NCBI GenBank assembly: GCA_021801925.1 | Contig: JAKABH010000002.1 | Span: 4,560 to 68,559, forward strand | Direction: 5' to 3' | Source: Thermoplasmata archaeon | GTDB taxonomy: Archaea > Thermoplasmatota > Thermoplasmata > Lutacidiplasmatales > UBA184 | DNA length: 64,000 bases | Shown: one piece after another, positions 12,128 through 64,000 of the stretch | Numbering within the stretch: the first letter of the stretch is position 1 | How the letters are laid out: each line of letters opens with the position of its first letter | Translations under genes and position numbers: made by a program | The notes under the pieces: generated by a model | Databases searched by the model: none | The model's input: only the letters and a program-made list of their open reading frames with translations | What the model was told of the DNA's origin: nothing

Positions 12128-12161
12128 TGGCCGCTCCACTAGCTCCACTGAAATCGTCCTC

Positions 12162-36726: not shown

Positions 36727-37500
36727 CCTTCCGGCGCGGGCGGCCGCCGGCCGCAGCACGGCGCCCAGCGCCCGCTCCCGCTCCCGCTCCGACCGCCCCG
36801 GCAACCGACGCGGATCGAGCCGTACTTCGGCGGAGCGCAGCCGGACCGACCATCGCCCGTCGGCCCCCGTCCGAACCTCGACCGCCAGCCCCCCCTTCGG
36901 CGCGGCGAGCTCCCCCCGCCCGGGGTCTGCGGCGTGGCGCACCCGGGCCGGGGGGAACGCCGTGCGGACGGCCCGGGCGACCCACCGCCGGCTCCGCACG
37001 TCGGGGGCGGCGATCGCGACCGGCAGCGGGGCCGTGCGCCGGCCGCTCGGATCGATCTCGCCGGCCCGGATCCGCCGGGAGCTCACCGGCCGCAGGTCGT
37101 CGGCGAGGACGATCGGGACGACCGCCACGGGGACCGGTCGGCGGCCGAGGCGGGCGCGCTCCCGGTTCACGGCCCGGCCCCCCTCGGCGGTCTCGGCCGA
37201 GACGATCAGCACGCCGACCTCGGGGGCGAGCGAGCCGCCGAAGCGGTCCGCGAGCGGCACGATCCGCACCGGCCGACCGGGGAACCGGCGGGCGACCCAT
37301 CGGGCGACCGCCGCCCGGCGCCGGCGGTACGGCTGAAGGCGCGGGGCGGCCGGCTTCGGATGCGCCGCCAGGTAGGCGTCCGTGGTGACCCCGATCGCCA
37401 CCGTCCGGCCGAGGGCGAAGGCGGTGCGCAGCAGCGCCTCGTGCCCCCGGTGCAGGTGGTCGAACGTCCCCCCGACGACGGCGAGCGCGTAGCGCGGCAT
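36721..37500 (-). CDS. coaD: Archaeal-type phosphopantetheine adenylyltransferase (cytidylyltransferase fold) with a C-terminal extension
   Basis: VVGGTFDHLHRGHEALL (GxFxxxHxGH nucleotidyltransferase motif). Trimmed to ATG 37500. Confidence 0.8.
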   Translation of the reverse strand: MPRYALAVVGGTFDHLHRGHEALLRTAFALGRTVAIGVTTDAYLAAHPKPAAPRLQPYRRRRAAVARWVARRFPGRPVRIVPLADRFGGSLAPEVGVLIVSAETAEGGRAVNRERARLGRRPVPVAVVPIVLADDLRPVSSRRIRAGEIDPSGRRTAPLPVAIAAPDVRSRRWVARAVRTAFPPARVRHAADPGRGELAAPKGGLAVEVRTGADGRWSVRLRSAEVRLDPRRLPGRSERERERALGAVLRPAAARAGRI

Positions 37501-37510
37501 CGGTCGACCG

Positions 37511-37699
37511 TCAGAGGTAGTGGGAGAAGAGGAGGATCGCCACCAGGGCGATCGTCCCGTAGAGCAGATAGGTGTAGTTCCGCCGGCTGCGCTCGAGCTC
37601 GGCCCGCTTCTCGGCGCAGGCCGCACTGCACGTCCACTCGTCCGGCGCGCACGGCCGGCCGCAGCTGCGGCAGTGGCGGTGGGGGATCACGGCGGCCAC
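37511..37699 (-). CDS. DUF2116-type Zn-ribbon protein with C-terminal TM helix
   Basis: CRSCG...CSAAC cysteines, C-terminal YLLYGTIALVAILLF, GTG start. Confidence 0.7.
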   Translation of the reverse strand: MAAVIPHRHCRSCGRPCAPDEWTCSAACAEKRAELERSRRNYTYLLYGTIALVAILLFSHYL

Positions 37700-37723
37700 G
37701 CTCCGGCGAGCCGACGCGGCCGC

Positions 37724-40567
37724 TTAGCGTTGTGCCCCCCGGCCGCGGGCGGCCGGGCGGCGGCGTCCCGTCGTCGGGCTCCCCGTCAGGTCCGGGTCGG
37801 GCGGGGTCGGCGGGAACTCCTCGGTCTCGAGAAACGGCTCCGACCCCTCCGGGTCTCCGCTCCGGGGCTCCGGGACGTCGACGTCGTCGGCGGTCCGCCG
37901 ACCGGCCGGCGTCTCGTCAAGCTCCGGCACGAAGCCGGCGCCGGACTCCGAGAGCTGGCGGACGAGGTTCATCCAGACCTTGCTCTGGGTCGTCATCGTG
38001 TGCTCGAGGCGTCGGCGGAGGACGGCCTGCTCGTCGCGCAGCTCCGTCTCGACGCGGCGGAGCTCGCGGCCGAGGTCGCGGCGGAGCTGGCCGAAGCGGG
38101 CCTCGGTGTCGTCGGAGCGGGCGAGCATCTTCTCGATCTCCTCGATCCGCACCCACGTCTTGCGGACGAGCGGGAGCATCTTGTCGGAAAGTACCTGCGT
38201 GCGGCGGTCGAGTTCGTCCAGGTCCCGCCGGACCTTCGCCTCCATCGTACCGATCGCCTCCGCCCGCTCGGCGAGCTTCTGCTCGACCGCATCGAGGCGG
38301 TCCGCGTCCGGGCCCCGGTCGCGCGCGAGGCGCGACTCGAGCTCCCCCATCGCGCGGAGGTAGTCGCGCCGGGTCTCCTCGGCGGCCCGCTCGACCCGCT
38401 CGCGGACCGCGGCGTCGAACCGGGTCGAATCGATCGTCCGGGCGAGGGCCTGGTCGACCTCCCCCTTGAGCCGAGCGAGGAGCTCGACGTACTTCGCCCG
38501 CTCCTGATCCCCCTCCTCCCGGAGCTTCTGGTCGAGGTACGATTGCATCCGGACCTGGAGGCCGGCGAGCGATTTCGACTGGGTGTCGGCCATCTCGGCG
38601 AGGCGGGCCTCGCGCTCGACGTCGCTCCGATGCACGGATTGGGCGAGCCGCTCGTCGGTCGCCGCCCGGGCCTGGGCCAGCTCGTGATCGATGCGGGAGG
38701 CGGCTTCCTTCGCCCGCGTCTCGACGACGACGTCGAGGCGCGCCTCGAGATCCTTCGCCCGGCCTTCGACGAGCGCCGCCAGCCGCTGCTCGAGCTCGCG
38801 CCCTTCCTTCGCGCGCTTCGTATCGAGCTCCTGGGCGAGGCGGTCGACGATCGCGCGCACGTTCGCCTCGACCTGCTCGCGCAGGGCGGTACCCTGCTCC
38901 TTCACCTCGCGGAGCTCGAGGTCGAGCTGGGCCGCCAGCGACGCCCGGAGCTCCTCCTCCGACATCGCCCCGCGGGCCGCCGCCTCCTGGGCGATCCGAT
39001 CGAGCTCGCTGCGGAACGACGCCGTCCACTGCTCGGAGGCCGCCCGGACCGCCTGCCGCGCCAGCTCGGGAAGGCCGGCGATCGACGGGTCGACCGCGGC
39101 GCGCACCCGTTGTTCGACGGCGCGGCCGAGCGCCGCCTCGTCCGCGACCGGCCGGGCCTCGAGCGCCGCCAGCCGGGTCGAGAGGTCGTGGCGGCTCTGG
39201 GCGAGCGCGCGGGCCGCGCCCTCGCTCGCCTCGGCGAGGCGGGCGTCGAGCGTGGAGCGCAGCCGGTGCTCGACCTCCTCGGGGAGGGCGGCCGGGGGCT
39301 CCGCCGGCGGGGTCGGGGCGTGCACGGACGGGTCGTTCTGGACGGGAACGGGCACCTCGCCGGCCGGGGAGGCGGCCCCGTCGACCTCGACCGGGGCCGC
39401 GAGCCAGGGGGGGAGCGGCGCGGCGGCCGCGGAGACCGGGTCCCCCGGCGGCGCGGTCGACGGCGCGGGCACCGCCCCGCCGCTCCGGGGCGAGGCGGCG
39501 ACGTATTCCTGGGCACGTCGGGCCGCCTCCCGGCTCGTCGGCACCGTCCGGCCCCGGGGCCGGCTGAGCAGGAGGGCCGCCGTCTCCATGGCGGTGCCGA
39601 TCCGCCACATCTCCTTGCGACGATCCCGCCCGGCCTGCCGATCCGGGTCGGTCAATAGGGCGCCGAGGCGGGGCCCCTCGACGAGGTCGACCCGCCGGGC
39701 GATCTCCGCGAGGCGATCGTCCGCCCGGTCGCGGGCGTACTGCAGCACGAGCGGGAGGGCATCCTTGCTGGCGCGGGCCGTCGTCGGGCGGGTGAGGTCC
39801 CGGAGCGTCACGGACGCCGCGTCCCAGCCGGCGACCCGCTTCTGGTGCCGCTCGCCGGCCGCCTCGCCTTTCGGGACGCGCATCACCGCCAGGGCAAGCG
39901 GCAGCTGTTCGGTGAGCTGGTGGAGGTCGACCTTCGCCACCGGCAGGAAGTACGGGAAGACGAGGACGGCCCCGAGGGCCACGAGGGCCGTCGGAAGCTC
40001 GGCGACCAGCTGCAGGGCGACGCGGTTCACGGCCTCCCACTGGTCGGAGGCGATGAGGACGACCGGCTCCGTCGACCCCCGGTGGAAGAGGAACCCCTCC
40101 CCGACGCCCTGGTAGACCGACTGGTCGGGGTCGGCGGCGGGCCGTTCGTCGGCCGATCGGCCGCCCATCGTCGCGTGCGCCCGGAGCACGGTGGCGTTGA
40201 AGTCGCCGCTCGCGACGAGCCGGGCCGTGTCGAAGACGAGGGTCTTCATCCCGATGCGGGGGCGGTCCTCGGTGGAAAGGAACATCCGGCCGACGCACGT
40301 GTAGCGCCCCCCGGCGGCCGGGTAGAGGAAGAGGTTCGGATAGTAGGAGAGCGGGGAGGCCGGATCGGGGTCCCAGTAATCGTGCGTGTCGGCGACGTTG
40401 ACGGTGAGGTTGCCGACGATCCGGATCGTCTCGAGCGTCTCGCGCCGGCCCGGGAACTCCTCCGGGATGGTCGTGTATCCCGGGCTCTCCGCCTCGTTGT
40501 CGACCTGCCGGCACCAGACGACGGCGACCGGGGCGTGGCCGGCCGCGGCCGTCTCCGAGCCCCGCAT
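37724..40567 (-). CDS. 947-aa protein: globular N-terminal domain + Pro/Ala linker + ~460-aa coiled coil + acidic tail (function unknown)
   Basis: This is the last 947 codons of the 1707-aa ORF. ATG 40567 overlaps the upstream stop (TGATG). Composition changes from R/G/P noise to protein-like exactly here. The long E/R/A/L helical region runs from EVEHRLRSTLDARLAEA to VWMNLVRQLSES. Confidence 0.8.
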   Translation of the reverse strand: MRGSETAAAGHAPVAVVWCRQVDNEAESPGYTTIPEEFPGRRETLETIRIVGNLTVNVADTHDYWDPDPASPLSYYPNLFLYPAAGGRYTCVGRMFLSTEDRPRIGMKTLVFDTARLVASGDFNATVLRAHATMGGRSADERPAADPDQSVYQGVGEGFLFHRGSTEPVVLIASDQWEAVNRVALQLVAELPTALVALGAVLVFPYFLPVAKVDLHQLTEQLPLALAVMRVPKGEAAGERHQKRVAGWDAASVTLRDLTRPTTARASKDALPLVLQYARDRADDRLAEIARRVDLVEGPRLGALLTDPDRQAGRDRRKEMWRIGTAMETAALLLSRPRGRTVPTSREAARRAQEYVAASPRSGGAVPAPSTAPPGDPVSAAAAPLPPWLAAPVEVDGAASPAGEVPVPVQNDPSVHAPTPPAEPPAALPEEVEHRLRSTLDARLAEASEGAARALAQSRHDLSTRLAALEARPVADEAALGRAVEQRVRAAVDPSIAGLPELARQAVRAASEQWTASFRSELDRIAQEAAARGAMSEEELRASLAAQLDLELREVKEQGTALREQVEANVRAIVDRLAQELDTKRAKEGRELEQRLAALVEGRAKDLEARLDVVVETRAKEAASRIDHELAQARAATDERLAQSVHRSDVEREARLAEMADTQSKSLAGLQVRMQSYLDQKLREEGDQERAKYVELLARLKGEVDQALARTIDSTRFDAAVRERVERAAEETRRDYLRAMGELESRLARDRGPDADRLDAVEQKLAERAEAIGTMEAKVRRDLDELDRRTQVLSDKMLPLVRKTWVRIEEIEKMLARSDDTEARFGQLRRDLGRELRRVETELRDEQAVLRRRLEHTMTTQSKVWMNLVRQLSESGAGFVPELDETPAGRRTADDVDVPEPRSGDPEGSEPFLETEEFPPTPPDPDLTGSPTTGRRRPAARGRGAQR

Positions 40568-41733
40568 CACGCCCCCTGGGTCGCCCGACGCTCGAAGATC
40601 CGCTCGCACGCCCGCGCCAGCGGGAGCGTCGTGTTGACCATCACGGGGACGCCGAGGGTCGGCGAGCCGACCGTCGGGGCCTCCTCGCCGCCCTCGCCGA
40701 TCAGCATCGGGTGGCCGCCGCCCGACGAGACGGCGCTCGACACCAGGAAGACGTCCTGCTTCACGGAGATCCCGCGTCCCTCCTGGGCGACCAGGATCGT
40801 CCCCATGGCGCCGCCGTCGCGGCGGAGGAGGAAGTCGGTCGGATCGAACGTGCTCCGATAGGAGCGCTCCCGGACCGACTGCTCGATCTCCCCGTAGAAC
40901 TCCGGGAGCTTGTCGGCCTTCGACACCGCGATGACGAGGGGCAGGTTGCGGGTCCGGACGTACTTGAAGACGCCTCGGGCGAGGTTCACCTGCTGCGCCT
41001 GCTCGTGGAGCGACGCGAGCGCCGGGGAGAGGAGCAGGATCACCGCGTCGGCCCCTTGGACGAATCGACCGAGCAGCGTGAGCCCGCGGCGCCAGAGATC
41101 GCGGCGATCGGGCCGCCAGGAGTCGAAGTGGGGGATGACGCGGCAGTTCCGTTCGGCGACCTCCGCCTCCTCCGAATCGATCCAGAGCCGGTCGTAGGTG
41201 AAGTAGTCGGCGATGATCCCGCCGGCCTCGTCGATCGTCTGAAGTTCCATCGGTCGGGAGCCGACCTCGCCGTCCGGCGCGCCGTAGCGGAACCGCATCC
41301 GCATCTCGACGAACTGGTTGAACTTGGTCGGGAGGGGGTACTTCGTGAGCACGCCCTGCTCCTCGCGCCCGGCGGCGAGCTCGACCCAGAGCTTCTTGCG
41401 GTCCTCCATCGGTCGGTTTACGTAGTAGCGGGTCGTCGTCTCGAGGCCCCCTTCGGGGTCGGTCGGGTCGGTCGTCTCGTACGTCGTTTCCTCGAGGGCG
41501 ACGTCGTGCTCCAGATCCCCGAACAGCGGCAGCGCGCCGCGGTCCGGTCGGGCCGGCACGTAGAGGATCGGCAGGTTGAGCCCAAAGTGGCCGGCGAGGA
41601 ACCGGAAGTACGTCGTCTTCCCCGAGGCGGGAATGCCGACCACCGCGATGCGGGCCGATTCCGGCGTCTTCTTCGTCTCGCGCTTCGTCCCCGGCGCGCG
41701 CCGGCTCTTCGTCGTGACCTTGACCTCTCCCAT
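40567..41733 (-). CDS. Atypical P-loop GTPase-like protein
   Basis: G1 GIPASGKT (res 33-40), G3 DEAG (168-171), G4 SKAD (271-274), G5-like SSA (332-334). About 125-aa insertion between G1 and G3. Confidence 0.8.
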   Translation of the reverse strand: MGEVKVTTKSRRAPGTKRETKKTPESARIAVVGIPASGKTTYFRFLAGHFGLNLPILYVPARPDRGALPLFGDLEHDVALEETTYETTDPTDPEGGLETTTRYYVNRPMEDRKKLWVELAAGREEQGVLTKYPLPTKFNQFVEMRMRFRYGAPDGEVGSRPMELQTIDEAGGIIADYFTYDRLWIDSEEAEVAERNCRVIPHFDSWRPDRRDLWRRGLTLLGRFVQGADAVILLLSPALASLHEQAQQVNLARGVFKYVRTRNLPLVIAVSKADKLPEFYGEIEQSVRERSYRSTFDPTDFLLRRDGGAMGTILVAQEGRGISVKQDVFLVSSAVSSGGGHPMLIGEGGEEAPTVGSPTLGVPVMVNTTLPLARACERIFERRATQGA

Positions 41734-41748
41734 GTGGAATTCCCCTGG

Positions 41749-43248
41749 CTACCGCATCTCCGCGAGGCAGACCTCGATGAAATCGAGGGCCCCCTCCGCC
41801 ACCGGCCCGGCCGCGGCGAGCTCGAGCCGGGCGTCCTGGAGCCGGCCGAAGACCGCCTCGACCGCCGCCTCGTGCTGGATCGCCGCGTCCTGGAGGTCCG
41901 CCTCCCCGGCGAGCTGCGTGAGCTGGTAGGTCCCCCGCAGTTCCATCAGCCGGGCGAAGAGGTCGAGCACCCGGTGGCGGACCGCGGCATCGGCCCCGCC
42001 GAGCCGATGCTCCGTCTCGTCGATGAACCGGACGAGCGTCTCCGTCTCCTTGTCGTTCTGCATTCGGGCCTGGAGGAGCGCGAGCCGCCGCACGACCCGG
42101 GCCCGCGCGGGCTCGGGGATCTGCTCGACCTCGACCCACGCCTGGATGAGCGAACGGGCCGCCTCCACGATCGCCCGGCGGGCGAACTGGACGCGCGCCT
42201 CCCAGTAGAGCCGGGTCACCGGCGGGAGGACCCCGCCGGAGCGTCGGACGAGCTCCAGGGCCCGGTCGAACTGGCCCGCGAGGTAGGCGTCGACGATCTC
42301 GCCCAGCGGGCCGTACCGCTCCGAAAGGTTCGCCGGAGCCGGGCCGGATCCGCTCGGGGAGGCGACCACCCCGACCTCGAACTCCGGTGCCTCGGTATAC
42401 GCCTCCTCCGCGTTCGGGCCCACCGTCGCGAGGCGCGAGACGGTCGCATGCTGCTGCGGCTCCTTGAGCGCCCGCGCCGCGCTCGCCGCGTGCCGGGCGA
42501 GTTCCTCCGGGTGGAGATCCTCGATCGGCCGGGCCTCCTCGTACTCGACGTCGAGGAAGGCATGGACCATCTGGGCGAAGAGGGCACTGCCGGTCGTGAC
42601 CTCCTGGTAGCTGAACGCCGCCGGCAGCCCGAGCGCCTGGGCCCGGTGGGTCAGCCGTCCGAGGAACTCCTGCATCCGCGCCCCGTCGACGCCCTTGTCC
42701 CGCTCCATGCCGCTGCCGATCCCGATCACCCGGAGCGAGAGCGCCGACTGCGCGGGCAGCATGTACTCGACGAGATCGGGGCGTCCGTTCGGCGGGGCAT
42801 CCGCCCCCGGGGCCGCGACGGCGAACCGGGTCGATGCGTTGTCCCACCCGTCGGTGACGAGGACGAGGGTGCCGTGGACGCCGCGGGAGCCGATCCGCAG
42901 GAGGTCGGCCCCGGCGGCGAGGGCGTCCCAGATCGCCGACCGGCCGCTCGGGGCGAGCATCGAGATGAGGTTCTCGATGTACGGGAGCTGCTCGGGGTGG
43001 ATCTCCGCGAGCGGCACGGGCGCCCGGACGCTCTCGGTGAACGTGACGAGGCCGAACCGCGCCCCCGAATGCGCCGCGTCCTGGAGGATCCGGAAGACCG
43101 CGGTACGGGCGACCTCGATCTTCGGTCGCTCGCCGCGGGGGGAGTCGGGATCCGGCAGCGGCGCGAGCATGCTCTTCGACAGATCGAGGACGAGGACGTT
43201 CCGTTCGCGGCCCAGTTCGGCGGGAGGAACGTCGGTGGGACCTTCCAT
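41749..43248 (-). CDS. von Willebrand factor A (vWA) domain protein with helical C-terminal half
   Basis: MIDAS residues D22-L-S-K-S26, T in VTFTES, D in LVTDGWDN. The C-terminal ~270 aa are helical-looking. Confidence 0.85.
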   Translation of the reverse strand: MEGPTDVPPAELGRERNVLVLDLSKSMLAPLPDPDSPRGERPKIEVARTAVFRILQDAAHSGARFGLVTFTESVRAPVPLAEIHPEQLPYIENLISMLAPSGRSAIWDALAAGADLLRIGSRGVHGTLVLVTDGWDNASTRFAVAAPGADAPPNGRPDLVEYMLPAQSALSLRVIGIGSGMERDKGVDGARMQEFLGRLTHRAQALGLPAAFSYQEVTTGSALFAQMVHAFLDVEYEEARPIEDLHPEELARHAASAARALKEPQQHATVSRLATVGPNAEEAYTEAPEFEVGVVASPSGSGPAPANLSERYGPLGEIVDAYLAGQFDRALELVRRSGGVLPPVTRLYWEARVQFARRAIVEAARSLIQAWVEVEQIPEPARARVVRRLALLQARMQNDKETETLVRFIDETEHRLGGADAAVRHRVLDLFARLMELRGTYQLTQLAGEADLQDAAIQHEAAVEAVFGRLQDARLELAAAGPVAEGALDFIEVCLAEMR

Positions 43249-43459
43249 CTACCCGCTCCGCCCCGGTTCGGTCGCCCGCGCCCCGGGCCGACCGTCGGCC
43301 GGCTCCCGGGGGACGCTCGCCGCAGCATTTACCCCGGGTGGGGTATTTCTGGCTTCCGCCGGCGCGAGGGCGTATAACCGGGGCCGGGCCGCCGACGACG
43401 CCGCCGGTTCCCCCCCTCGCTCACGGCGGGGCGACCGTGACGGACGCCCGGAGCCATCG

Positions 43460-43466
43460 TTATAAA
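43460..43466 (+). promoter_or_regulatory. TATA-like box (TTATAAA) 30 nt upstream of the rps17e ATG
   Basis: The only AT-rich heptamer in the spacer. The distance fits a leaderless mRNA. Confidence 0.45.
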
Positions 43467-43489
43467 CGGTCAACCCTCGGGCGGCGCGC

Positions 43490-43714
43490 ATGGGCAACAT
43501 CCGCCAGACGTACATCAAGCGGGTCGCGATCGAACTGATCCGCACGCACCCCGAGTCGTTCGACGGGGACTTCGCGCACAACAAGGCGAAGGTCCTCGAG
43601 CTGACCGACCTCGGCGTGGTCGTCGACGGGCAGATGCAGGTCCATTACAAGAAGCTCGCCAACCGCATCGCGGGTTACGCGACGCGGTACATGAAGCGCA
43701 AGCGGGGCACGTAG
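43490..43714 (+). CDS. rps17e: 30S ribosomal protein S17e
   Basis: MGNIRQTYIKRVAIELI...DF..NKAKV pattern, 74 aa. Confidence 0.9.
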   Translation: MGNIRQTYIKRVAIELIRTHPESFDGDFAHNKAKVLELTDLGVVVDGQMQVHYKKLANRIAGYATRYMKRKRGT

Positions 43715-45326: not shown

Positions 45327-45782
45327 TCAGAGATACTTGGCGAGTTCGGGTCGTTCGGCGACGAGGCTCTTCATCGTCGCGGCCGAGACCTGGTCCAGCA
45401 ACTGGAGCCCCTTCGGGGTGATCCGCCGACCCTGGTTCTTGTACGCCTGGACCAGGCCCGCCTTCTCGAGCTGCTGGACGATCTCCCGCAGCACCGCGCG
45501 GGAGCCCGAGCGGGCGTGATACGGGGCGCTGCCCCGGTCGCGCTTGCCTCCGTATTCCGCCGCGAGCCGCTCCGTGCCGACGATGCCGAGCACGAAGATC
45601 TTGCGGAGCACCGAGGCGCTCCGCAGGTACCACCAGTCCGGAGAGGTCGGTCCCCGCTGCTTGTGGACGCCGGTCTTGACGAACGTCGCCCACGGCGGGG
45701 GCGCGACCGCGTGGCGACTCTTCAGTTCCGCCGCGAGCGGCGGGAGGAGCTTCGAGGGCGGGACGTCGTGGGGATGGGTCAT
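45327..45782 (-). CDS. rps19e: 30S ribosomal protein S19e
   Basis: PPWATFVKTGVHKQRGPTSPDWWYLRSASVLRKI pattern. Only the last 151 codons of the 662-aa ORF. Confidence 0.9.
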   Translation of the reverse strand: MTHPHDVPPSKLLPPLAAELKSRHAVAPPPWATFVKTGVHKQRGPTSPDWWYLRSASVLRKIFVLGIVGTERLAAEYGGKRDRGSAPYHARSGSRAVLREIVQQLEKAGLVQAYKNQGRRITPKGLQLLDQVSAATMKSLVAERPELAKYL

Positions 45783-45808
45783 GGAGCGGCGCGGCCACCC
45801 GGCCCGCC

Positions 45809-45815
45809 TATTTAA
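45809..45815 (-). promoter_or_regulatory. TATA-like box (TTAAATA on the minus strand) about 30 nt upstream of the rps19e ATG
   Basis: AT-rich heptamer in a GC-rich spacer at the distance expected for a leaderless mRNA. Confidence 0.45.
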
Positions 45816-45939
45816 CGAGCCACCCTCGGGGAGCCCTCCGGCGACCGAGGTGCAGGCGAGCCGGACCGGGCCCTCGCACCGGGCGGCCCTTAAGAGGCAC
45901 CTGCCGGTGGGCCGAGGGGCCCGCGGGGAGGTTCGACCG

Positions 45940-46548
45940 ATGGCGACGGCTGCGATCCTGCTGAGCGGCGGCGCTTCGACCCGATTCGGGGACCGTCCGA
46001 AGGCGCTTCTCTCGACCGGCGAGCGCTCCTCCGTCCGGCGGCTCGCCGAGGTCGCCCTCGCCGCCCGGCTCGACCCGGTCGTCGCGGTCGTCGGGACCCA
46101 TCGCGGCCCGATCGCGCACGAGCTCCGGGGGCTCCCGGTCGAGATCGTCGAGGCGACCGAGTGGTACGAAGGTCGGACGGCGTCGGTCCAGGCCGGCCTC
46201 CGGGCGCTGCCCGCCGACCGGGACGTCCTTCTCTGGCCGGTCGACCATCCGTTCGTCGCCGCGCGGACCGTCGACCGCCTGCTCGCCGTCCGGGACCACG
46301 ACCCCCTCGCGGTCTGGTTCATCCCGACGTTCGAGGGGCGGGGGGGCCACCCGGTCCTCTGGCGGGCGGGGCTCCGCGACGACCTCCTCGAACTGCGGGC
46401 GGACGCCTCCCTCCGCCTCCTGCTCCCCGAGCTCGGCCCCCAGGTGCGCCGCATCGGGGTCGACGATCCCGGCGTCGTCGCGAACGTCGACACCCCGGAC
46501 CAGTATCGCGCCGCCTTCGACCTGTGGCGGCAGCGGTCGGAGGAGTGA
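45940..46548 (+). CDS. mocA: Molybdenum cofactor cytidylyltransferase (MocA-type nucleotidyltransferase)
   Basis: AILLSGGASTRFG..PKALL N-terminal motif, GGAGGT Shine-Dalgarno-like run upstream. ORF 45544 trimmed. Confidence 0.8.
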   Translation: MATAAILLSGGASTRFGDRPKALLSTGERSSVRRLAEVALAARLDPVVAVVGTHRGPIAHELRGLPVEIVEATEWYEGRTASVQAGLRALPADRDVLLWPVDHPFVAARTVDRLLAVRDHDPLAVWFIPTFEGRGGHPVLWRAGLRDDLLELRADASLRLLLPELGPQVRRIGVDDPGVVANVDTPDQYRAAFDLWRQRSEE

Positions 46549-47393
46549 TGGATCGCCGGCTGCTCCGCGAGGCGCTCCGCCTGCTCGATGCCCGCGCGTC
46601 GTTCGTCCGGGCGACCGTCGTGGAGACCCGCGGCTCGGTCCCGGGGAAGCGCGGGGCGTCGATGATCGTGCGCGCCGACGGGTCGACCGTCGGGACCGTC
46701 GGCGGCGCCGCGCTCGAGGAGCGGGTGAAGGAGCTCGCCGCCCGCGCCTTCGAGACCCGGCAGGGGGGGCTCCACCACTTTGACCTCAAGGCCTGGGCGC
46801 CCGGGGGCCTCCCGAGCCTCTGCGGCGGCTCCGCCGAGATCGCCCTCGAGTACGTCCCGAGCCGGCCGAACCTGCTGCTCTGGGGCGGCGGCCACGTCGC
46901 GCAGGCGCTGGCGCATCTCCTCCCGACGCTCGACTACGACTACAGCGTCGCCGACGACCGGCCGGAATGGATCGGGGCGGAGCGGTTCCCCGAGGCGGAG
47001 CGCCGCGAGGTCGTCGACGCGTCCCGCCTCTGGGAGGTCTTCGCGCCGGAGGCGTTCACCCACCTCTACGTGCTCGGCTACGACGCGGGCCGGGACCTCG
47101 AGGTCCTCGCGACGTCGCTCGACCGGTTCCCGAACACGATCGGCCTCATCGCCAGCGCCTCGAAGCGGGCGCACCTCTTCGCCCAGCTGCGCGCCCGGGG
47201 ATTCCCGCGGGAGCGCCTCGCCCGGATCCGCTCTCCCGTCGGGCTCCCGATCGGGTCGGAGACGCCCCCGGAGATCGCCGTCAGCATCGTCGCCGAGATC
47301 GTCCGGGACCGGCACCCCTCGTCCTTACGTACTTCCGCGCCTGCTGGCTCGGCCGCCGAGGATCCCCACGATGCCGTCCCCTCCGCCCGTTAG
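46548..47393 (+). CDS. xdhC: XdhC/CoxI-family Mo-enzyme maturation protein
   Basis: ATG overlaps the mocA stop (TGATG). VVETRGSVPGKRGASMIV (XdhC N-domain) and LLLWGGGHVAQAL Rossmann-like C-domain. Confidence 0.8.
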   Translation: MDRRLLREALRLLDARASFVRATVVETRGSVPGKRGASMIVRADGSTVGTVGGAALEERVKELAARAFETRQGGLHHFDLKAWAPGGLPSLCGGSAEIALEYVPSRPNLLLWGGGHVAQALAHLLPTLDYDYSVADDRPEWIGAERFPEAERREVVDASRLWEVFAPEAFTHLYVLGYDAGRDLEVLATSLDRFPNTIGLIASASKRAHLFAQLRARGFPRERLARIRSPVGLPIGSETPPEIAVSIVAEIVRDRHPSSLRTSAPAGSAAEDPHDAVPSAR

Positions 47394-47844
47394 GTTCCGG
47401 TTGAACGGCCAGCCGACCGAGGTCGCGGTCGAGCCCGCCCGCGTCCTGCTCGACCTGCTGCGGGACGACCTCCGTCTCACCGGGACGAAGCGCGGCTGCG
47501 ACCTCGGTACCTGCGGCTGCTGCACCGTCCTGGTCGACGGACGGCCCAGCTTGAGCTGCCTCACCCTCGCCCGGCTGGTCGACGGCCGGGAGGTGACGAC
47601 GATCGAGGGGGTCTCGCCGCCCCAGGGGCTCTCGCCGCTGCAGCGGGCGTTCGTCGAGGTCGGCGCCACCCAGTGCGGGTTCTGCACGCCGGGATTCGTC
47701 GTGACCGCGACCGCCTTCCTCCGGGACCACCCCCACCCGTCGCGCGAGGAGATCGTCCGGGCGATCTCGGGGAACCTCTGCCGCTGCACGGGCTACCTCA
47801 AGATCATCGAGGCGATCGAGCGCGCCGCGGCGGGAGGCGCCTGA
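47371..47844 (+). CDS. (2Fe-2S)-binding small subunit of a xanthine-dehydrogenase-family enzyme
   Basis: CDLGTCGCCTV and CGFCTPG...CRCTGY cysteine motifs. Confidence 0.9.
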   Translation: MPSPPPVRFRLNGQPTEVAVEPARVLLDLLRDDLRLTGTKRGCDLGTCGCCTVLVDGRPSLSCLTLARLVDGREVTTIEGVSPPQGLSPLQRAFVEVGATQCGFCTPGFVVTATAFLRDHPHPSREEIVRAISGNLCRCTGYLKIIEAIERAAAGGA

Positions 47845-56446: not shown

Positions 56447-56562
56447 GTCGGAGCCGGGAGGCGGCCGGTTCCTTATCCGTTGCCGTTCCCGCCCGACCCG
56501 CCGAGGTTCGCCACCCTCGTCTCCGTCCGACTCCCCCGCCGACCGGAGCGGCCCAGGGGAGG

Positions 56563-56648
56563 CGCTGAGGGGGAGATTTGAACTCCCGCGACGGAAACCG
56601 TCACCAGATCTCGAATCTGGCGCCTTGGCCGAGCTAGGCTACCTCAGC
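56563..56648 (-). tRNA. tRNA-Ser (anticodon CGA), class II with long variable arm
   Basis: Hand-folded. Acceptor GCTGAGG/CCTCAGC, D stem GCCT/AGGC, anticodon stem CCAGA/TCTGG with loop TTCGAGA, variable-arm stem GACGG/CCGTC, T arm GGGAG-TTCAAAT-CTCCC. 86 nt. Confidence 0.9.
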
Positions 56649-56849
56649 ACCCTATCGCGGGGAGTTGCGCCCGCTTTTAGCGATTTGCGGGCAGCCGAGC
56701 TCCGCCGGACTCGCCGCGTGCGACCGAACATTCGCCGCTCTCGCCCGCCGTACTTGTCTCGACTCGAACCTCCGACCGACTGCCCAACCGGGTGAGTTCC
56801 TGACTCCTGCGTAAATAGGTTGTTATCCGGGATCCCTCTGCCTCTCTGC

Positions 56850-57888
56850 ATGGGCCGATGGGCACAGCGCCATCGGGGTGCCGCCACCCTCGAAGAACGT
56901 CGATTGACGGGCCTCGCGCTCCTGCACTCCGGCCACTCGCAGGCCGACGTCGCTCGCCGCCTCGGAGTTACTCCCGTAGCGGTGTGTCACTGGAAGAGTG
57001 CCCTCGACGAAGGCGCCCCGCGGCGCTGCGCGCCATCCCTCGGCCCGGCCGGCCCCCGCTGGTGTCGAAGGACCACCAAGCCGCTCTCCCCGAGATGCTC
57101 GCGAAGGGAGCGCTCACCTACGGGTTCTCCACCGACCTCTGGACGAACCCACGCATCGTGAAGGTCGCCGAGGCCCAGTGGGGAGTTCGGTACTCCGAGA
57201 CAGCGATGTGGCGGATGCTCAAGCGCCACGGACTCTCCTGGCAGCGGCCTCGGAGGCAGGCCCGAGAGAAGGACCTCCGGGCCGTCTACAACTGGCGCCG
57301 TCGCTCCTGGCCTCGCTCTAAAAAAAACCCCGACACCGAAGAGCCGTAGTGGTCTTCGTGGACGAGAGTGGGTTCTCTCTCATCCCCTATGTCGCGAAGA
57401 CCTGGGCCCCCGTTGGCCAAACCCCGGTGCAGATCCACCAAGGACTGTGTCCGAAGTTCTCGGCGATCAGCGGCGTGACTCCCCCATGGAAGCTCTACAT
57501 CCAGGTCCACAAGGACACGATCGCCACCGACCAGCCTGTGGAGTTCCTCCAGCATCTCTTGCGACACATTCGCCGGCGACCCATCATGGTCTTCTGGGAC
57601 GGAGGTCGTCCCCACCACTCTGACGAGACTCGCGCCTTCCTCCGAGCCCACCCTCGGATCGAGGCGCAGCGGTTTCCGGGCTACAGCCCCGAGCTCAACC
57701 CCGATGAGTAGGTCTGGAGGCACCTGAAGAACCACGAACTCGCCAGCTACGCTCCGCACGACGTGAAGGAACTGAGCCGGGAACTCCGGCGTGCGGTCGT
57801 TCGAATGCGGGTCCGGCCCAAGCTGCTCTGTTCGTTCGTCGCGGCGACTCACCTCTACGATTCAGCACCTGACGACGGTGCGGGATGA
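56850..57888 (+). pseudogene. IS630-family transposase, disrupted (one indel, one A8-run frame change, one in-frame TAG)
   Basis: The HTH (frame of 56820) joins the frame of 56858 near 57015-57030 (...LDEG|PAALRAIPRPGRPPL). The frame changes again at A8 57320-57327 into VVFVDESGF. TAG at 57709-57711 lies inside ...SPELNPDE*VWRHLKN. Confidence 0.8.
57320..57327 (+). repeat. A8 homopolymer (slippery run) inside the IS630 remnant
   Basis: The only long homopolymer I saw in the window. A -1 slip here joins ...WPRSKKK to PRHRRAVVVFVDESGF. Confidence 0.85.
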
Positions 57889-58388
57889 GACGAACGGAGG
57901 ATTCTCCTCGGTAAGTGTTAAGCTATTTCGTCCGGCATCAGTAACTCGGTCCGGGCCGCCGCCCGGCCATCCGCGAGGTGACTCCGAGCTCTTGGAGAAG
58001 GTCTGGGGGCTACTGGAGGAACGTCACCTTGACTGGTCGCAAATCGCCCAGAACCGCCACGTCCCGGCAAGTAGCTGCCGAAAGTGGGTCTCCTACGCAG
58101 CTCGGGCTAAGGCGGTTACAGCCAACGGCCCGGTGACCAGGGCCTCCCCGAAGGGAGCCTGAAGACTGACCGCGGCGCCTCAATGGCGAAGGCTATTTGC
58201 CGCGGCCGTTGGGCCGGCCACCCCCCTACTGCCTAGACCCTCAGGAAGGCGGTCCGAGCGCGTGGAGAAACACGGCGGAGCCCGTCAAGGGGGTCGATTT
58301 GGGAGAAGCCAAACTTCTCAGATGAAGCGTGTTACTTCGAACTACACGAGCGACACTATCAAGTAGCAAAGCATCCGTGGCATCCCGC

Positions 58389-58712
58389 ATGAAGGGTGTC
58401 CTCTCTGTCCTGGGTAAGAAGAGGGCTCTGGACGTCTTGGACTTCCTTGAGTCCGAACCGCGGGGCGCACGATTCATCGACGTCCAACGATGGGCGGTGA
58501 ACGGGGTTCCATCGGTCACGACAGGCCTACTCAAGGACCTCAGGCAGTGCGGCGCAGTCGTCCGCGATGGCTCCGGGGACCTGCCCAGATACCGGATCAC
58601 CGACGCTGGAAAGGAGGCACGAACACATCTACACCAAGCCCTCGCCGCGCTGCATGGTGCGCGAGACAAGCGCCAGCCTCGTCAGGATTTGAGGAGAAGA
58701 ATGGGAGGGTGA
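58389..58712 (+). CDS. Small winged-helix DNA-binding protein
   Basis: LGKKRALDVLDFLESEPRGARFIDVQR...LKDLRQCGAVVRD...RYRITDAG follows a wHTH (HxlR/MarR-like) pattern. Trimmed to ATG 58389. Confidence 0.6.
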   Translation: MKGVLSVLGKKRALDVLDFLESEPRGARFIDVQRWAVNGVPSVTTGLLKDLRQCGAVVRDGSGDLPRYRITDAGKEARTHLHQALAALHGARDKRQPRQDLRRRMGG

Positions 58713-59494
58713 ACTGCGTGAAGGACCAGTACTTCGGTGACGTGAACGATTATCGCAAGTTCGGGCTTCTAAGGGGGTTGACCAGTGAGAGAGACCTTCG
58801 GCTGTCTATTTGCTGGGCACTGACCCGCTCAGATGGGCGGACTGACGGGTCCAAAACTCAGTACCTCGAGAACCCGAGCATCTGGAGGAGATTCGATCCC
58901 GAGCTCTTTGCCTTCCTTCGGCAACAGGTGGTCGATCGCGGCGACCGCCGAGTGGGTGCCATCGAAGGCACGCGAGTGCTTGGAGACTGCAACTTTTTCA
59001 GCGAGACCCTCCCGCGAGAGGAAGCGGCTCGAGACGGCTACTTCGAGAGACTTTGCGACCTTGCCGCCCGCACCGATCTCGTGTTCTTCGACCCAGACAA
59101 TGGCCTAGGTGTCAAGTCGACACCGAGAGGATGCCCGAACTCTGAGAAGTACGTGTACCCGTCGGAACTGGCGTCCGTCTTCTCACTGGGACCATCGATT
59201 CTCCTCTACCAACATTTCCCGAGGAGGCCACGAACCCAGTTCACCCAATGGTTGGCACGCTCACTTTGTGAGTTGCTTGGAAGCGAACGGGCGGTGGCCT
59301 TCATTACACCCCACGTGCTCTTCCTCCTCGTGCCGAACCGTCGTCACTGGGCCGCACTGAGGGCGGGCGCCGAGCGGGTCGCTGGGAGATGGAGCGGCCA
59401 GATTGGAGTGGTCCACCTCAGTCGACTTGGGAATCTCCGCCCGGTCCCATTCGATGCCTTTGGGCCCCGCGAAGCCGCCCCCGTTGCGGCGTGA
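58709..59494 (+). CDS. Hypothetical protein with GDVNDYRKFGLL and FFDPDNG motifs
   Basis: GTG 58709 overlaps the wHTH stop (GTGA). 261 aa, protein-like composition. No family recognised with confidence. Confidence 0.6.
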   Translation: MNCVKDQYFGDVNDYRKFGLLRGLTSERDLRLSICWALTRSDGRTDGSKTQYLENPSIWRRFDPELFAFLRQQVVDRGDRRVGAIEGTRVLGDCNFFSETLPREEAARDGYFERLCDLAARTDLVFFDPDNGLGVKSTPRGCPNSEKYVYPSELASVFSLGPSILLYQHFPRRPRTQFTQWLARSLCELLGSERAVAFITPHVLFLLVPNRRHWAALRAGAERVAGRWSGQIGVVHLSRLGNLRPVPFDAFGPREAAPVAA

Positions 59495-59505
59495 GATCGC
59501 CGGGC

Positions 59506-60189
59506 CTATGCGCTCCAGAGCGGTCGAACGAGGCTTGATGGCTGTTTCCACCCTGCGCAGACTCTAACCTCCGCGGACGCCGCAACCGATAGCACGTTTT
59601 CCACCCCCCGGTCCACCGCCACCTCGACGACCTGTCCGGATTCAGGGAAGCGATCTATTGCCTGGAACGTGTCCGCCCCCCTCGGTGGCGGATCCTCCCC
59701 GTTAGCGCGCCTGAAAGTGCTGCCGGAGTTCATCGAGGTGAGCGCGATCCGGGCGGAGCACTGATCGAGCAGCAACCGCGTGTTCACCTTCAGGACGACG
59801 TGTTCAAAACCTCTGTAGAACTTCGCTCCGAGAAGCATCTCGAGCCGAGACCACTCCGCCCAGAAGAACACCTTGGCATTGATCAAGCGATACCAGTCCT
59901 CCACAGACATCCCCTGCTCCAGCAGGGGGCGGAGCTCGGCCGGGGGCATGGGTTGCTGGTCCCGGATCCAAGCAGGGGGAAGGCCTGTCTTCTCGATCTT
60001 GACCATCGCTGGCCTCCACCTGGACTCGATCAGCTCCCTGCGCCCTCCAGTGTATCCGTAGAGGTCAAGCAATGCGGAAGTGCTGAGGAGCCCCCTGGCC
60101 TGTATCCCGGGCCAGTTCGGGACCTCGGCCATATGGTAGAGAGTCGGGTAGCGCTCTATCAGCACCCCAATCCTCAAGCTCCCTCCCAA
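59506..60189 (-). CDS. Putative ADP-ribosyltransferase-fold protein (DarT/DUF4433- or DUF7002-like)
   Basis: N-terminal LYHMAEVPNWPGIQARGLLSTSALLDL and C-terminal QVVEVAVDRGV resemble the H...E elements of DarT-type ARTs as I remember them. Start is TTG 60189 (16-nt overlap) or GTG 60165. Confidence 0.55.
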   Translation of the reverse strand: MGGSLRIGVLIERYPTLYHMAEVPNWPGIQARGLLSTSALLDLYGYTGGRRELIESRWRPAMVKIEKTGLPPAWIRDQQPMPPAELRPLLEQGMSVEDWYRLINAKVFFWAEWSRLEMLLGAKFYRGFEHVVLKVNTRLLLDQCSARIALTSMNSGSTFRRANGEDPPPRGADTFQAIDRFPESGQVVEVAVDRGVENVLSVAASAEVRVCAGWKQPSSLVRPLWSA

Positions 60190-63159: not shown

Positions 63160-63528
63160 GCTTGGTCACACTCGTACGCGGATTTCCCTGCTTCGAAGGT
63201 CCCCGCTACGTCGACCCAAGAGGAGACTCGGGCGAGCGTGACTCGCAGCAAACCCTCCCGTGCTTCTCGGTTCGGCCCTTGTCTTTGGTCCCCCCCATCG
63301 AACTATGTCCCCCTGCCCTCCACCATAATCGCCAAGAGGATTAACGCTCAGCGATGGTGTGTCGCGGCCTACTCGATAGGACCGAAATCCAGGGAGGGAA
63401 AGGCAACGGACCCGATTCGAGAAACGGCCCCTGAGAAGATGAATTCCGGGGACACCCCCTGAATCAAGGTCCCACCGAGGGCCACATTCCCGCCGCACAT
63501 CCGGCCATCTTGCGAGAAACGTGCTCGA

Positions 63529-63729
63529 TTATCGCCGTCCGCGGCGGCTTCCGCTCCCTGAGAAGAAGTTGATAACGATTACCACCGCTGTCAGCCCGAA
63601 GACCGCAGCGACGACTTCCACGATGTAGCCTGTGAACTCAAGGAGGACTGACGGGAGGAAGAACGCCACGAAAATGAAACCTACAATCAATACGAGAAGC
63701 ACCGTGACGATTCCGTCCCACTTGTTCAT
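63529..63729 (-). CDS. Possible small two-TM membrane protein (66 aa)
   Basis: IVTVLLVLIVGFIFVAFFL and VVAAVFGLTAVVIVINFF, with a basic C-terminus. AT-richer codon usage like the surrounding island. Confidence 0.4.
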   Translation of the reverse strand: MNKWDGIVTVLLVLIVGFIFVAFFLPSVLLEFTGYIVEVVAAVFGLTAVVIVINFFSGSGSRRGRR

Positions 63730-64000
63730 TCAGTTGCTCCCATCGGGCCGATTTGGGGCTGCTGGAACAGGGGGACGGCGGTCATGACGTGAGCTCGGCG
63801 GTCGAAGCGGGCAGGCGCTCGTCCTTCCACCAGCGGCGCACGACCCGTCTGGCTCTCCATGCTCGCAAATCGCCGGTGTAGGTCACGTCCATGTGTTTTC
63901 GGTTAACGACCCCTTCCACTCGAGCCGAGTAGGCTCATGAGGGGCGTCCCACGTCAGTGCGATGTCGCATCCGTCGAAGAAGACACGAGTCCGTCACCGC

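Follow-up and report, generated by a model that had tools for sequence, protein, structure and literature searches.

A three-gene locus confined to Thermoplasmatota encodes vWA, P-loop GTPase-like and stalked longin-like proteins and is a candidate switch module

Layout and conservation of the locus

A stretch of 64,000 nt of archaeal DNA from a Thermoplasmata archaeon (assembly GCA_021801925.1, contig JAKABH010000002.1), with a G+C content of 72%, was studied and is referred to below as the window. The subject of this analysis is a set of three adjacent genes in the window, numbered in their order of reading: gene 1 specifies a vWA protein, gene 2 a P-loop protein and gene 3 a long protein with a globular head and a helical stalk. 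A first-pass annotation of this DNA had described three same-strand open reading frames (ORFs) with coupled junctions, and their coordinates, strand and sizes (499, 388 and 947 aa) were confirmed. The features of the locus are listed in Table 1.

Table 1. Features of the three-gene locus and its immediate surroundings in the window
Feature	Position	Strand	Description	Basis
Gene 1 (vWA)	41749-43248	minus	499-aa vWA/MIDAS protein with helical C-terminal domain	ORF call
vWA domain of gene 1 (about aa 17-232)	42553-43200	minus	MIDAS D22, S24, S26, S104, D133	
C-terminal helical domain of gene 1 (aa 240-499)	41752-42531	minus	possibly TPR-like	conservation
Gene 1-gene 2 spacer	41734-41748	minus	CCAGGGGAATTCCAC, 15 nt, from gene 1 stop to gene 2 ATG	read in sequence
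Gene 2 (P-loop)	40567-41733	minus	388-aa orphan P-loop protein with GTPase-type motifs	ORF call
Gene 2/gene 3 stop/start overlap	40565-40569	minus	TGATG	read in sequence
Gene 3	37724-40567	minus	947 aa: globular head, Pro/Ala linker, periodic helical stalk, conserved C-terminal helical module, variable tail	
Longin-like subdomain of gene 3 (aa 13-160)	40088-40531	minus	nearly invariant motifs VWCRQVDNEAESPGYT, ADTHDYWDP, GRMFLSTEDRPRLGMKT	
Alpha/beta (aa 165-280) and helical (aa 283-340) subdomains of head	39548-40075	minus		AlphaFold model
Pro/Ala-rich linker (aa 351-430)	39278-39517	minus	short conserved motifs PPW; VPV..(Q/S)xDPS	
Helical stalk (aa 431-725)	38393-39277	minus	26-residue periodicity	periodicity analysis
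Conserved C-terminal helical module (aa 761-875)	37943-38287	minus		heptad-like periodicity
Variable tail of gene 3	37727-37942	minus	acidic/Pro-rich with basic tip RRRPAARGRGAQR	low identity
DUF2116 gene, 62 aa	37511-37699	minus	zinc-binding treble clef (CxxC...C) and C-terminal hydrophobic helix	Pfam DUF2116, E 1.7e-11
Cytidylyltransferase-like (PPAT-type) gene, 259 aa	36721-37500	minus		Pfam CTP_transf_like, aa 8-146
Divergent intergenic region, gene 1 (minus)/rps17e (plus)	43249-43489	.	probable operon promoter region	A/T-run mapping

The stop codon of gene 1 (TAG, 41751-41749) is followed, beyond the spacer, by the ATG of gene 2 at 41733, and the TGA of gene 2 (40569-40567) and the ATG of gene 3 (40567-40565) have one base, an A, in common within the context GTGATG. 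Across 84 related loci, the junction between genes 2 and 3 had this 1-nt overlap in 71 cases and a 4-nt overlap (ATGA) in a further 3, giving overlaps in 74/84. The spacer between genes 1 and 2 measured 7 to 15 nt in 69 of 73 related loci. The overlap of genes 2 and 3 was also kept in the divergent loci L081, L082 and L084. Given this recurrence over related loci, the junction geometry is judged to be no chance event, and the counts agree with the coupled operon proposed in the first-pass annotation.

One genome per GTDB species was scanned for relatives of gene 2, and 80 loci were fetched. Relatives were detected in 110 species at 70% to 91% identity, all of them Thermoplasmata metagenome-assembled genomes and mostly from soil and peat. 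A full HMMER pass of gene 2 against 1.84 billion representative proteins returned only 13 matches, all belonging to the same family or being fragments of it (at least 53% identity), and no family member from any cultured organism. On the proteins searched, such isolation is unusual for a P-loop GTPase. All 80 species-level loci with sufficient flanking sequence had the three genes in this order, and gene 1 orthologues adjoined the GTPase gene in every one. The wider order dsDNA_bind, L31e, eIF6, (S17e), vWA, P-loop, gene 3 and, further on, DUF5611 and M50 protease was likewise conserved in every locus with enough flank. Three divergent Thermoplasmatota lineages also keep vWA, P-loop and gene 3, with gene 2 57% to 62% and the gene 3 head 38% to 46% identical; a DUF2116 gene, a cytidylyltransferase-like or NTPase gene, a 73-aa ORF and M50 lie downstream of the trio in these lineages, and the upstream neighbours are entirely different in two of the three. 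The co-occurrence of the three families across archaeal genomes, on which the first-pass annotation had staked its reading, was thus seen in 80/80 flanked loci and in the three divergent lineages.

Across 38 loci, identity to the window copy co-varied among the three proteins (Spearman rho of 0.70 to 0.84) and with that of eIF6, L31e and M50 (S2P) (rho of 0.41 to 0.81). The ratio of nonsynonymous to synonymous substitution rates (dN/dS) was determined by the Nei-Gojobori method for the window copy versus five orthologues. Values of 0.08 to 0.16 were obtained for gene 2, 0.20 to 0.29 for gene 1 and 0.15 to 0.23 for the gene 3 head, the comparison genes giving 0.08 to 0.21 (L31e), 0.21 to 0.44 (eIF6) and 0.25 to 0.32 (M50 protease). 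Chance ORFs in GC-rich DNA were rejected as an explanation because all three genes had dN/dS values well below 1 and conserved orthologues.

The trio is single copy in the window and its GC fraction (0.71 to 0.755) matches that of the window. In the window, tRNAs were found only at 7.7 and 56.5 kb, and the trio is not bordered by a tRNA, an integrase or a transposase, in keeping with the host-like GC and borders free of insertion sequences and tRNAs noted before. There was no significant PADLOC match for the trio. A recent island or a defence system was rejected on the grounds of host GC, the absent PADLOC match, fixed synteny and co-varying divergence, and because the locus is unlike the real islands of the window (see below). 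Overall, vertical inheritance and strong purifying selection, with dN/dS values like those of ribosomal proteins, argue that the trio is a core, vertically inherited cellular module confined to Thermoplasmatota rather than an island, as the first-pass annotation had held.

The three encoded proteins

The vWA profile matched residues 18 to 138 of the gene 1 protein above the Pfam thresholds (VWA_2, 32.4 bits with a cut-off of 27; VWA, 27.7 bits with a cut-off of 23.8), and the domain beyond residue 138 was judged to extend to about residue 232 from a conserved IGIGSG...GVD...F pattern. The residues of the metal ion-dependent adhesion site (MIDAS), namely D22, S24, S26, S104 (in PSGRSA) and D133, were at least 97% conserved in 76 orthologues. 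S104 lies 78 residues past S26 and 29 ahead of D133, a spacing which we take to be that of the MIDAS Thr position in integrin-type (I) domains, VTFTES presumably lying in the second strand and outside the MIDAS. A complete MIDAS is predicted for gene 1 on this basis, with a conserved Ser at the Thr position. The complete MIDAS proposed earlier was upheld for D22, S24, S26 and D133, in a domain above the Pfam threshold, with S104 replacing the Thr of VTFTES. Since the vWA domain reaches about residue 232, the helical C-terminal part, previously put at about 270 aa, is present with a size of about 260 aa. It was 0.60 to 0.78 identical to the window copy except in a linker (aa 276-300), and TPR matches, all sub-threshold, occurred at equivalent positions in 3/4 diverse orthologues. 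Because no hydrophobic signal-like segment was seen by eye at the N-terminus, the gene 1 protein is taken to be cytoplasmic.

The G1, G3, G4 and G5-like motifs that had been read in gene 2 were all found to be invariant in 40 homologues: G1 GIPxSGKTT (33-41), G3 DEAGG (168-172), SKxD (271-274) and SA (333-334). The Walker A (GxxxxGK[ST]) and Walker B (DxxG) patterns of TRAFAC proteins are present as G33-IPxSGKT-T41 and D168-EAG-G172. An AlphaFold model of gene 2 was poor (predicted local distance difference test [pLDDT] of 44, predicted template modelling score [pTM] of 0.49) because the alignment was shallow, most sequences being at least 79% identical. In this low-confidence model, S271-K-x-D274 and S333-A334 are placed after predicted strands 266-270 and 328-331, with Ser in place of Asn/Thr, and the order of strands (b) and helices (a) fits that of TRAFAC proteins: b1-P-loop-a1-...-b2/b3 hairpin-DxxG-a2-b4-a3-b5-SKxD-a4-b6-SA-a5. 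Between helix 1 and the b2-b3 hairpin, the model has an additional segment of approximately 90 residues that is rich in beta strands and very conserved, and approximately 30 further residues lie past switch II. The N-terminal tail, just ahead of G1, is rich in Lys and Arg.

Searches with the sequences of all three proteins in Pfam, NCBIfam, PADLOC and PDB yielded the vWA domain alone. Sub-threshold matches to the GTP_EFTU model were detected at residues 253-293, the G4 region, in 35/40 family members, and other sub-threshold P-loop matches were to the FeoB, Der, MMR_HSR1, GPN-loop and DO-GTPase2 models. No recurrent Ras, Arf, Rag or septin match was found when the 40 GTPase homologues were scanned singly against Pfam at E <= 10. 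The top weak Foldseek matches of the gene 2 model were nearly all TRAFAC proteins (Rag/Gtr, YcjX, EF-Tu/eEFSec, PH1320, LRRK2, Rab and MglA). Because of the invariant motifs, the weak matches at the expected sites, the order of the elements and the TRAFAC-rich Foldseek list, gene 2 probably encodes a divergent NTPase of the GTPase fold, the family of which is not nameable.

An AlphaFold model of the gene 3 head was obtained from the first 350 residues and 25 homologues at 37% to 79% identity. The model was confident (pLDDT of 85.8, pTM of 0.87), the longin part having a pLDDT of about 90. The elements of the longin part are b15-20, b30-34, a41-58, (b73-75) b79-84, b89-98, b104-113, a114-133 and a149-160. 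The modelled order of residues 15 to 160, b-b-a-b-b-b-a-a, is the longin topology, with a five-stranded antiparallel sheet. An alpha/beta part follows (b169-173, a177-190, b200-203, a215-221, b224-230, a233-249 and b254-257) and then a pair of helices (a283-306 and a313-335). The alpha/beta part consists of four beta-alpha units (169-280), has no GxxxxGK[ST] in aa 165-280 and matched, weakly, both a designed protein of minimal P-loop fold and AAA ATPases of viruses; a Foldseek comparison of the head with viral structures yielded nothing beyond weak ATPase-like matches to this part. A DENN module is composed of a longin domain, an alpha/beta sandwich that resembles a minimal P-loop NTPase domain but is devoid of its motifs, and a d-DENN part made up of helices only (PMC3521125). 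In architecture only, the order of elements in the modelled head fits this tripartite layout.

The best Foldseek match of the head in the PDB, itself sub-significant, was C9orf72 (7mge_C, from the C9orf72-SMCR8-WDR41-ARF1 complex), with 360 columns, an E value of 3.3e-3 and a probability of 0.44. The next matches, likewise sub-significant, comprised the Lokiarchaeal longin 8yqg (probability 0.63-0.66, E 0.06-0.1), the Lst4 longin 4zy8, the GATOR1 chain 6ces_N and TagF. Conservation of the head peaked in the longin part, with 0.85 to 0.94 identity for aa 26-100. The most conserved stretch of gene 3, VWCRQVDNEAESPGYT, spans strand 1, the following loop and the start of strand 2 (longin b1-loop-b2). 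Within the b1-b2 loop, which reads SPG, residues W18, R20-D23, E25 and E27-P29 were invariant and C19, N24 and A26 were at least 90% conserved. The same site carries the essential WD of C9orf72 and, in GAP (GTPase-activating protein) longins, the GP motif beside the arginine finger (PMC12290439). These results suggest that the gene 3 head is built like a longin-DENN module, with membership of the DENN family falling short of significance. The view that no function could be assigned to the three proteins was too pessimistic for gene 3, for which a longin, alpha/beta and helical head could be modelled, domains of this class being binders and regulators of small GTPases.

The remainder of gene 3 was less constrained. 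The linker had an identity of 0.29 to 0.41 and a dN/dS of 0.5 to 0.8, which is almost neutral; PPW was present in 55/74 homologues, divergent ones included, and [VI]P[VI]..D[DE]PS in 33/74. The stalk, with a dN/dS of 0.31 to 0.67, was found to be periodic. For aa 431-700, z was about -1 at 3.5 residues per turn and rose up to +6.4 at 3.67-3.73, the best period was 3.70 to 3.73 in 63/63 full-length orthologues and the hydrophobic autocorrelation peaked at lags of 26, 52 and 78. A repeat of 26 residues corresponds to 11 + 15, or seven turns at 3.72 residues/turn, a geometry that predicts either a coiled coil with a right-handed twist or a long amphipathic helix lying on a surface. Among right-handed coiled coils, those with 11- and 15-residue repeats include the E-G peripheral stalk of A/V-type ATPases. 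The gene 3 stalk resembles these in its hydrophobic periodicity of 3.7, not 3.5, residues per turn but has no sequence similarity to any solved chain and is several times longer.

A heptad-like period (3.57) was detected only in the C-terminal part (aa 725-850), and the helical part of gene 3 has 22 Gly/Pro positions, among them P473, P494, P500, G752-P753 and P799. A continuous heptad coiled coil was rejected on the grounds of these Gly/Pro positions and the absence of a 3.5 periodicity in aa 431-700. The first-pass annotation had envisaged about 460 aa of uninterrupted charged helix forming a coiled coil of about 70 nm if continuous; both statements had to be abandoned, since most of the region is without heptad periodicity, in favour of a segmented stalk whose main part has the 26-residue periodicity. 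If extended at 0.15 nm/residue, the repeat part would measure about 44 nm and aa 726-875 about 22 nm.

Most complete gene 3 orthologues are 930 to 1250 aa long, and those of the divergent lineages 555 to 690 aa. These short homologues are without most of the repeat region yet keep the C-terminal module, which aligned to the last 100-170 residues of all of them (E of 1e-12 to 1e-19) and had a dN/dS of 0.19 to 0.42. Identity in the tail was 0.11 to 0.21, and many long orthologues have an acidic/aromatic ...DPANPLDP... motif and a basic end, RR..R..GAQR/GSQS, in this part. Many assemblies break inside gene 3 just past the head (L002, L013, L019, L037, L038, L040, L045, L047, L050 and L053), many gene 3 database proteins are annotated as "partial" and several entries are frameshifted past the head. 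The head had 25 to 37 database matches versus 353 for the adjacent GTPase, gene 3 being under-represented in protein databases because assembly seems to be difficult across the Pro/Ala linker and the repeat stalk.

Promoter region, neighbouring genes and islands

A/T-only runs of at least 5 bases were mapped between 33 and 47.5 kb of the window. Only seven were present, none of them between 36727 and 43326, and four fell in the 240-bp gap between gene 1 and rps17e (43327-31, 43344-48, 43373-77 and 43460-66). Either TTATA (43377-73, minus) or TAAAT (43331-27) could be the promoter element of gene 1. On the other strand, TTATAAA (43460-66) lies 24 to 30 nt 5' of the rps17e ATG (43490, plus), a spacing that suggests a leaderless or near-leaderless rps17e mRNA. 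TTTTAT (36428-36423, minus) lies 26 to 31 nt 5' of the start of the DUF5611 gene (36397).

The DUF2116 gene starts 24 nt beyond the gene 3 stop, and the PPAT-type gene 10 nt beyond the DUF2116 stop. Because of these short gaps and the lack of an A/T run from 36727 to 43326, the transcription unit probably consists of five genes, the trio followed by DUF2116 and the PPAT-type gene as the last. The operon had been placed between CoA and ribosomal-protein genes; this needs amending in that the CoA gene is not an immediate neighbour, the DUF2116 gene intervening. A DUF2116 gene was found directly 3' of gene 3 in the three divergent lineages examined (L081, L082/83 and L084/85). Its product could be a membrane anchor of the trio or merely a partner of the PPAT gene. 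The PPAT-type gene is the same neighbour in L081 and L084, and in L082 its position is taken by a 357-aa NTPase_I-T protein. Some 110 C-terminal residues of the PPAT-type protein, beyond its Pfam domain, are without assignment.

Ahead of the vWA gene in two divergent loci (L081 6243-6506 and L084 3850-4089), a small ORF of 79 to 87 aa with no Pfam match overlaps the vWA gene start by 4 nt, which suggests a fourth coupled gene in these lineages. The window has no convincing counterpart of it; a 111-aa ORF (43249-43584) overlaps rps17e on the opposite strand and seems spurious.

Two stretches of the window differ from the rest in composition. The first (7600-14300, GC of 0.65 to 0.68 versus 0.72 to 0.75) starts right after tRNA-Arg(CCT) at 7700-7774 and contains an rve-like integrase with HTH domains (7990-9612, plus), an IS110-family transposase (9849-10958, minus) and two ORFs without a Pfam match (10856-12145 and 12558-13580, minus); it is probably an integrated mobile element. 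The second (56500-64000, GC of 0.62 to 0.67) adjoins tRNA-Ser(CGA) at 56561-56648 and contains an HTH_33/HTH_32 transposase-like fragment (56858-57346), DUF7002 (59506-60186), a fusion of AAA_18 kinase-like and adenylosuccinate-synthetase-like parts (60174-61781) and an M78/IrrE-like peptidase (61777-63156). This second stretch resembles an island, some genes of which may serve in defence or prophage control.

A candidate GTPase switch module and its alternatives

The features described above are consistent with a lineage-specific housekeeping GTPase switch module composed of a GTPase, a dimeric longin-type regulator on a stalk and a vWA adaptor, a reading to which we assign a probability of about 0.5. 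In this module, the trio, probably together with the two small downstream genes, would be transcribed from the promoter region common to rps17e, and coupled translation would provide matched amounts of the proteins. Gene 2 would supply a divergent, nucleotide-binding TRAFAC-type GTPase with a basic N-terminal tail and the beta-rich insertion of about 90 residues at the place of switch I. Gene 3 may dimerise via its stalk, pairing two longin and DENN-like heads in the manner of C9orf72-SMCR8 or FLCN-FNIP. The near-invariant longin sheet and the b1-b2 and b4-b5 loops would bind the switch regions of gene 2 and either set its nucleotide state, as a GAP or guanine nucleotide exchange factor (GEF), or read it. 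The MIDAS metal of gene 1 might clamp an acidic residue of a partner, candidates being the acidic motifs in the linker and tail of gene 3, and the helical, possibly TPR-like domain might bind a second peptide motif. As output, a stalk with a length of tens of nanometres would be assembled or positioned under the control of GTP.

The nearest parallels are the longin-DENN regulators (C9orf72-SMCR8, FLCN-FNIP, GATOR1 Nprl2/3 and DENND1B-Rab35), which have the same order of subdomains as the modelled head and include its best PDB match, C9orf72. Gene 3 is translationally coupled to a GTPase gene and its conservation is highest at the longin b1-b2 loop, the site of the WD/GP motifs. Longin-DENN complexes act as longin-longin dimers, and the stalk could supply the dimer in the trio. 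The differences are that gene 2 was not Rab, Arf or Rag-like by any search, that the head is fused to a stalk of 450 to 800 residues, that the host belongs to the Thermoplasmatota, outside Asgard archaea and eukaryotes, and that no vWA partner is known in longin-DENN complexes.

In MglA-MglB and Rag-Ragulator, a switch GTPase is likewise encoded beside a roadblock/longin-superfamily partner that acts as a dimer, and GTPase/roadblock-longin gene pairs are widespread in archaea and bacteria (PMC3521125). Gene 2, by contrast, has 388 aa with large insertions and was not MglA/Arf/Rag-like in searches, and the partner is a 947-aa multidomain protein rather than a roadblock of 120 to 160 aa. The COPII core (Sar1, the vWA-like trunk of Sec23/24 and the longin-SNARE Sec22) also combines a GTPase, a vWA fold and a longin with a coiled coil. 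This analogy, drawn for Sec23/24 and Sar1 in the first-pass annotation, is speculative and one of parts only; no Sec23_trunk, Sar1/Arf or synaptobrevin matches were obtained and the trio proteins have no membrane anchor.

Several observations weigh against the proposed switch module. For gene 2, the G4 motif is SKxD rather than [NT]KxD and no G2 was identified, no family reached threshold in Pfam, NCBIfam, PADLOC or PDB sequence searches, and Foldseek gave no match at E <= 1e-3, the best E value being 0.013 on the model with a pLDDT of 44; because that model is poor, the fold is argued from motifs alone. For the head, Foldseek gave no PDB match at E <= 1e-3, TM-scores were low (0.19 for C9orf72; 0.35 to 0.38 normalised to longin targets) and no Pfam longin, DENN or GAP1 match was found in 25 diverse homologues at E <= 10. 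With the structural match sub-significant and Pfam silent in these 25 homologues, homology to the DENN, FLCN, SMCR8 or C9orf72 families did not emerge. Furthermore, the GP of longin GAPs is replaced by PG in the head, and of the invariant arginines R20, R94, R102 and R104, which are finger candidates, none was located in three dimensions as an arginine finger. What is proposed above for the vWA protein is guesswork.

A structural or cytoskeletal machine, improbable on present evidence, is the alternative that survives best. Gene 3 would be a filament or tether of right-handed 26-residue coiled coil, gene 2 a septin-like, dimerising or polymerising control of its assembly, and the longin likeness of the head would have no regulatory meaning. 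The length of the periodic stalk, which varies by lineage from about 100-170 helical residues to more than 500, fits such a machine, as does its weaker yet real constraint, the periodicity being kept in 63/63 orthologues. Septins have AKAD at G4 and a polybasic region at the same place as the basic tail of gene 2, which lies just ahead of G1 in a protein whose G4 is also xKxD (SKAD). However, constraint on gene 3 is strongest in the head, chiefly its longin sheet, and not in the stalk; short homologues without most of the stalk still have the head and the C-terminal module; and gene 2 had no Pfam septin match (PF00735) at E <= 10.

A link to the vWA-containing NTPase conflict systems, raised in the first-pass annotation, was explored in the form of a remote, domesticated relative of the DO-GTPase-GAP1 systems, which we consider quite improbable. 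The core of these systems is a TRAFAC GTPase that has a Glu in Walker B, with a three-domain protein encoded after it, and vWA and coiled-coil proteins belong to some of them (Kaur et al. 2020, eLife 9:e52696, PMC7159879). The likeness lies in the Glu that follows the Walker B Asp of a TRAFAC-type GTPase (DEAGG), in the gene order, the GTPase coming before a partner that consists of three globular subdomains plus a polar extension, and in the adjoining vWA gene; in some GAP1-N2 systems, GAP1 bears a polar extension and there are vWA and coiled-coil proteins as well. Weak Pfam DO-GTPase2 matches were found in 18/40 family members (best E of 0.033). When 8 members were examined singly, however, 5 matched DO-GTPase2 and only at model positions 3-16, the P-loop, with scores far below threshold (E of 0.033 to 0.28). 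No recurrent GAP1-N, -M, -C, GASH, GAAD or EAD match was found in 25 head homologues, so that the earlier link keeps its sub-threshold P-loop matches, Walker B Glu and gene order but has no Pfam GAP1 domain. There is, moreover, no variable effector, FNIII array or second GTPase copy, and the same genes recur in 80 loci and three divergent lineages. The locus is fixed, single copy and vertically inherited in archaea, and gene 2 is conserved about like the neighbouring translation genes, whereas the described systems are overwhelmingly bacterial and the trio has no significant PADLOC match.

By analogy with eukaryotic 60S maturation, which involves MIDAS-dependent steps and GTPases, the trio would be a ribosome- or translation-linked factor whose three proteins act on ribosomal subunits, for example in biogenesis or eIF6 handling; we regard this as highly improbable. 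In most genomes the operon adjoins S19e-PDCD5-like-L31e-eIF6 genes and S17e, a NOG1 GTPase gene is nearby in one divergent lineage, gene 2 has its Lys/Arg-rich N-terminal tail and gene 3 an Arg/Gly-rich tip, and the evolutionary rate is like that of ribosomal proteins. Against this, L081 and L084 no longer have eIF6 and L31e beside the trio but still have the DUF2116-PPAT-M50 genes downstream of it; the trio yielded no domain of a kind that binds RNA or associates with ribosomes; and all other archaea do without the module.

Barely plausible is a vWA and NTPase pair for metal-cofactor insertion (CoxD/CoxE or chelatase type) serving nearby molybdo-enzyme genes, since gene 2 is no AAA+/MoxR ATPase, the cofactor genes are separated from the trio by five translation genes, have the opposite orientation and do not occur near it in L081 and L084, and gene 3 is left unexplained; in its favour are a weak NCBIfam match of the vWA protein to a cobaltochelatase subunit (E of 4.5e-5, 22 bits versus a cut-off of 779), XdhC/CoxI-type, NTP_transf_3 and Fer2 genes 3 to 5 kb upstream in L082, and window ORFs at 45544-47844 (plus), beyond the ribosomal-protein cluster, that resemble, in resemblance only, the L082 set of NTP_transf_3 (MobA-like), XdhC/CoxI-type and 2Fe-2S (CoxS-like) genes. 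In MoxR-vWA and CoxD-CoxE, as here, a MIDAS vWA protein is encoded beside a P-loop NTPase. Gene 2 differs in having GTPase-type G4/G5 motifs and no AAA+ features, and the vWA gene comes first and has its own helical domain. MoxR-vWA was rejected because gene 2 had no AAA_3 or AAA_5 match, the only AAA match being to AAA_18 (E of 0.031, below threshold, a nucleotide-kinase-like model); nothing found here links the trio to the MoxR-vWA parallel that had been drawn.

The trio proteins are named "hypothetical protein" in the sources that list them, the sole exception being one NCBI record in which a gene 2 homologue is a "GTPase domain-containing protein". No description of a vWA-GTPase-longin operon in Thermoplasmatota was found in the literature searched. 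A GTPase with a longin/roadblock-type partner is known already as a kind of system. What is new is the combination seen here: the GTPase is an orphan, the DENN-like head sits on a stalk of 26-residue repeats, a vWA protein is the further partner, and conservation is like that of ribosomal proteins in an archaeal clade outside Asgard.

The pairing of a GTPase with a longin/roadblock protein is a common thread between the polarity modules of prokaryotes and the membrane traffic and nutrient signalling of eukaryotes. Complete DENN-type modules are held to be eukaryotic, and longin-type GAP candidates have been reported only from Asgard archaea. The boldest form of the switch-module proposal is that a complete longin-DENN-type regulator occurs outside eukaryotes and Asgard archaea, with an orphan GTPase and a vWA/MIDAS protein, and is fixed and essential-looking in a Thermoplasmatota clade; we hold this to be unlikely. 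If true, it would either have been invented independently or be a prokaryotic and older relative of the GAP/GEF complexes of longin-DENN type (C9orf72-SMCR8, folliculin and GATOR1), and its parts list of GTPase, vWA fold and longin on a coiled coil would echo the COPII core. If the head is truly of the longin-DENN kind, this machinery would be extended to Thermoplasmatota, the locus would offer a simple three-gene, probably homodimeric model of such regulators and the unusual 26-residue-repeat stalk would join the known coiled-coil types. Should the fold assignment prove wrong, it still holds that three "hypothetical" families, present in about 110 species of abundant soil and peat archaea, are conserved about like translation genes, and this conservation marks an unrecognised core function in the Thermoplasmatota lineage.

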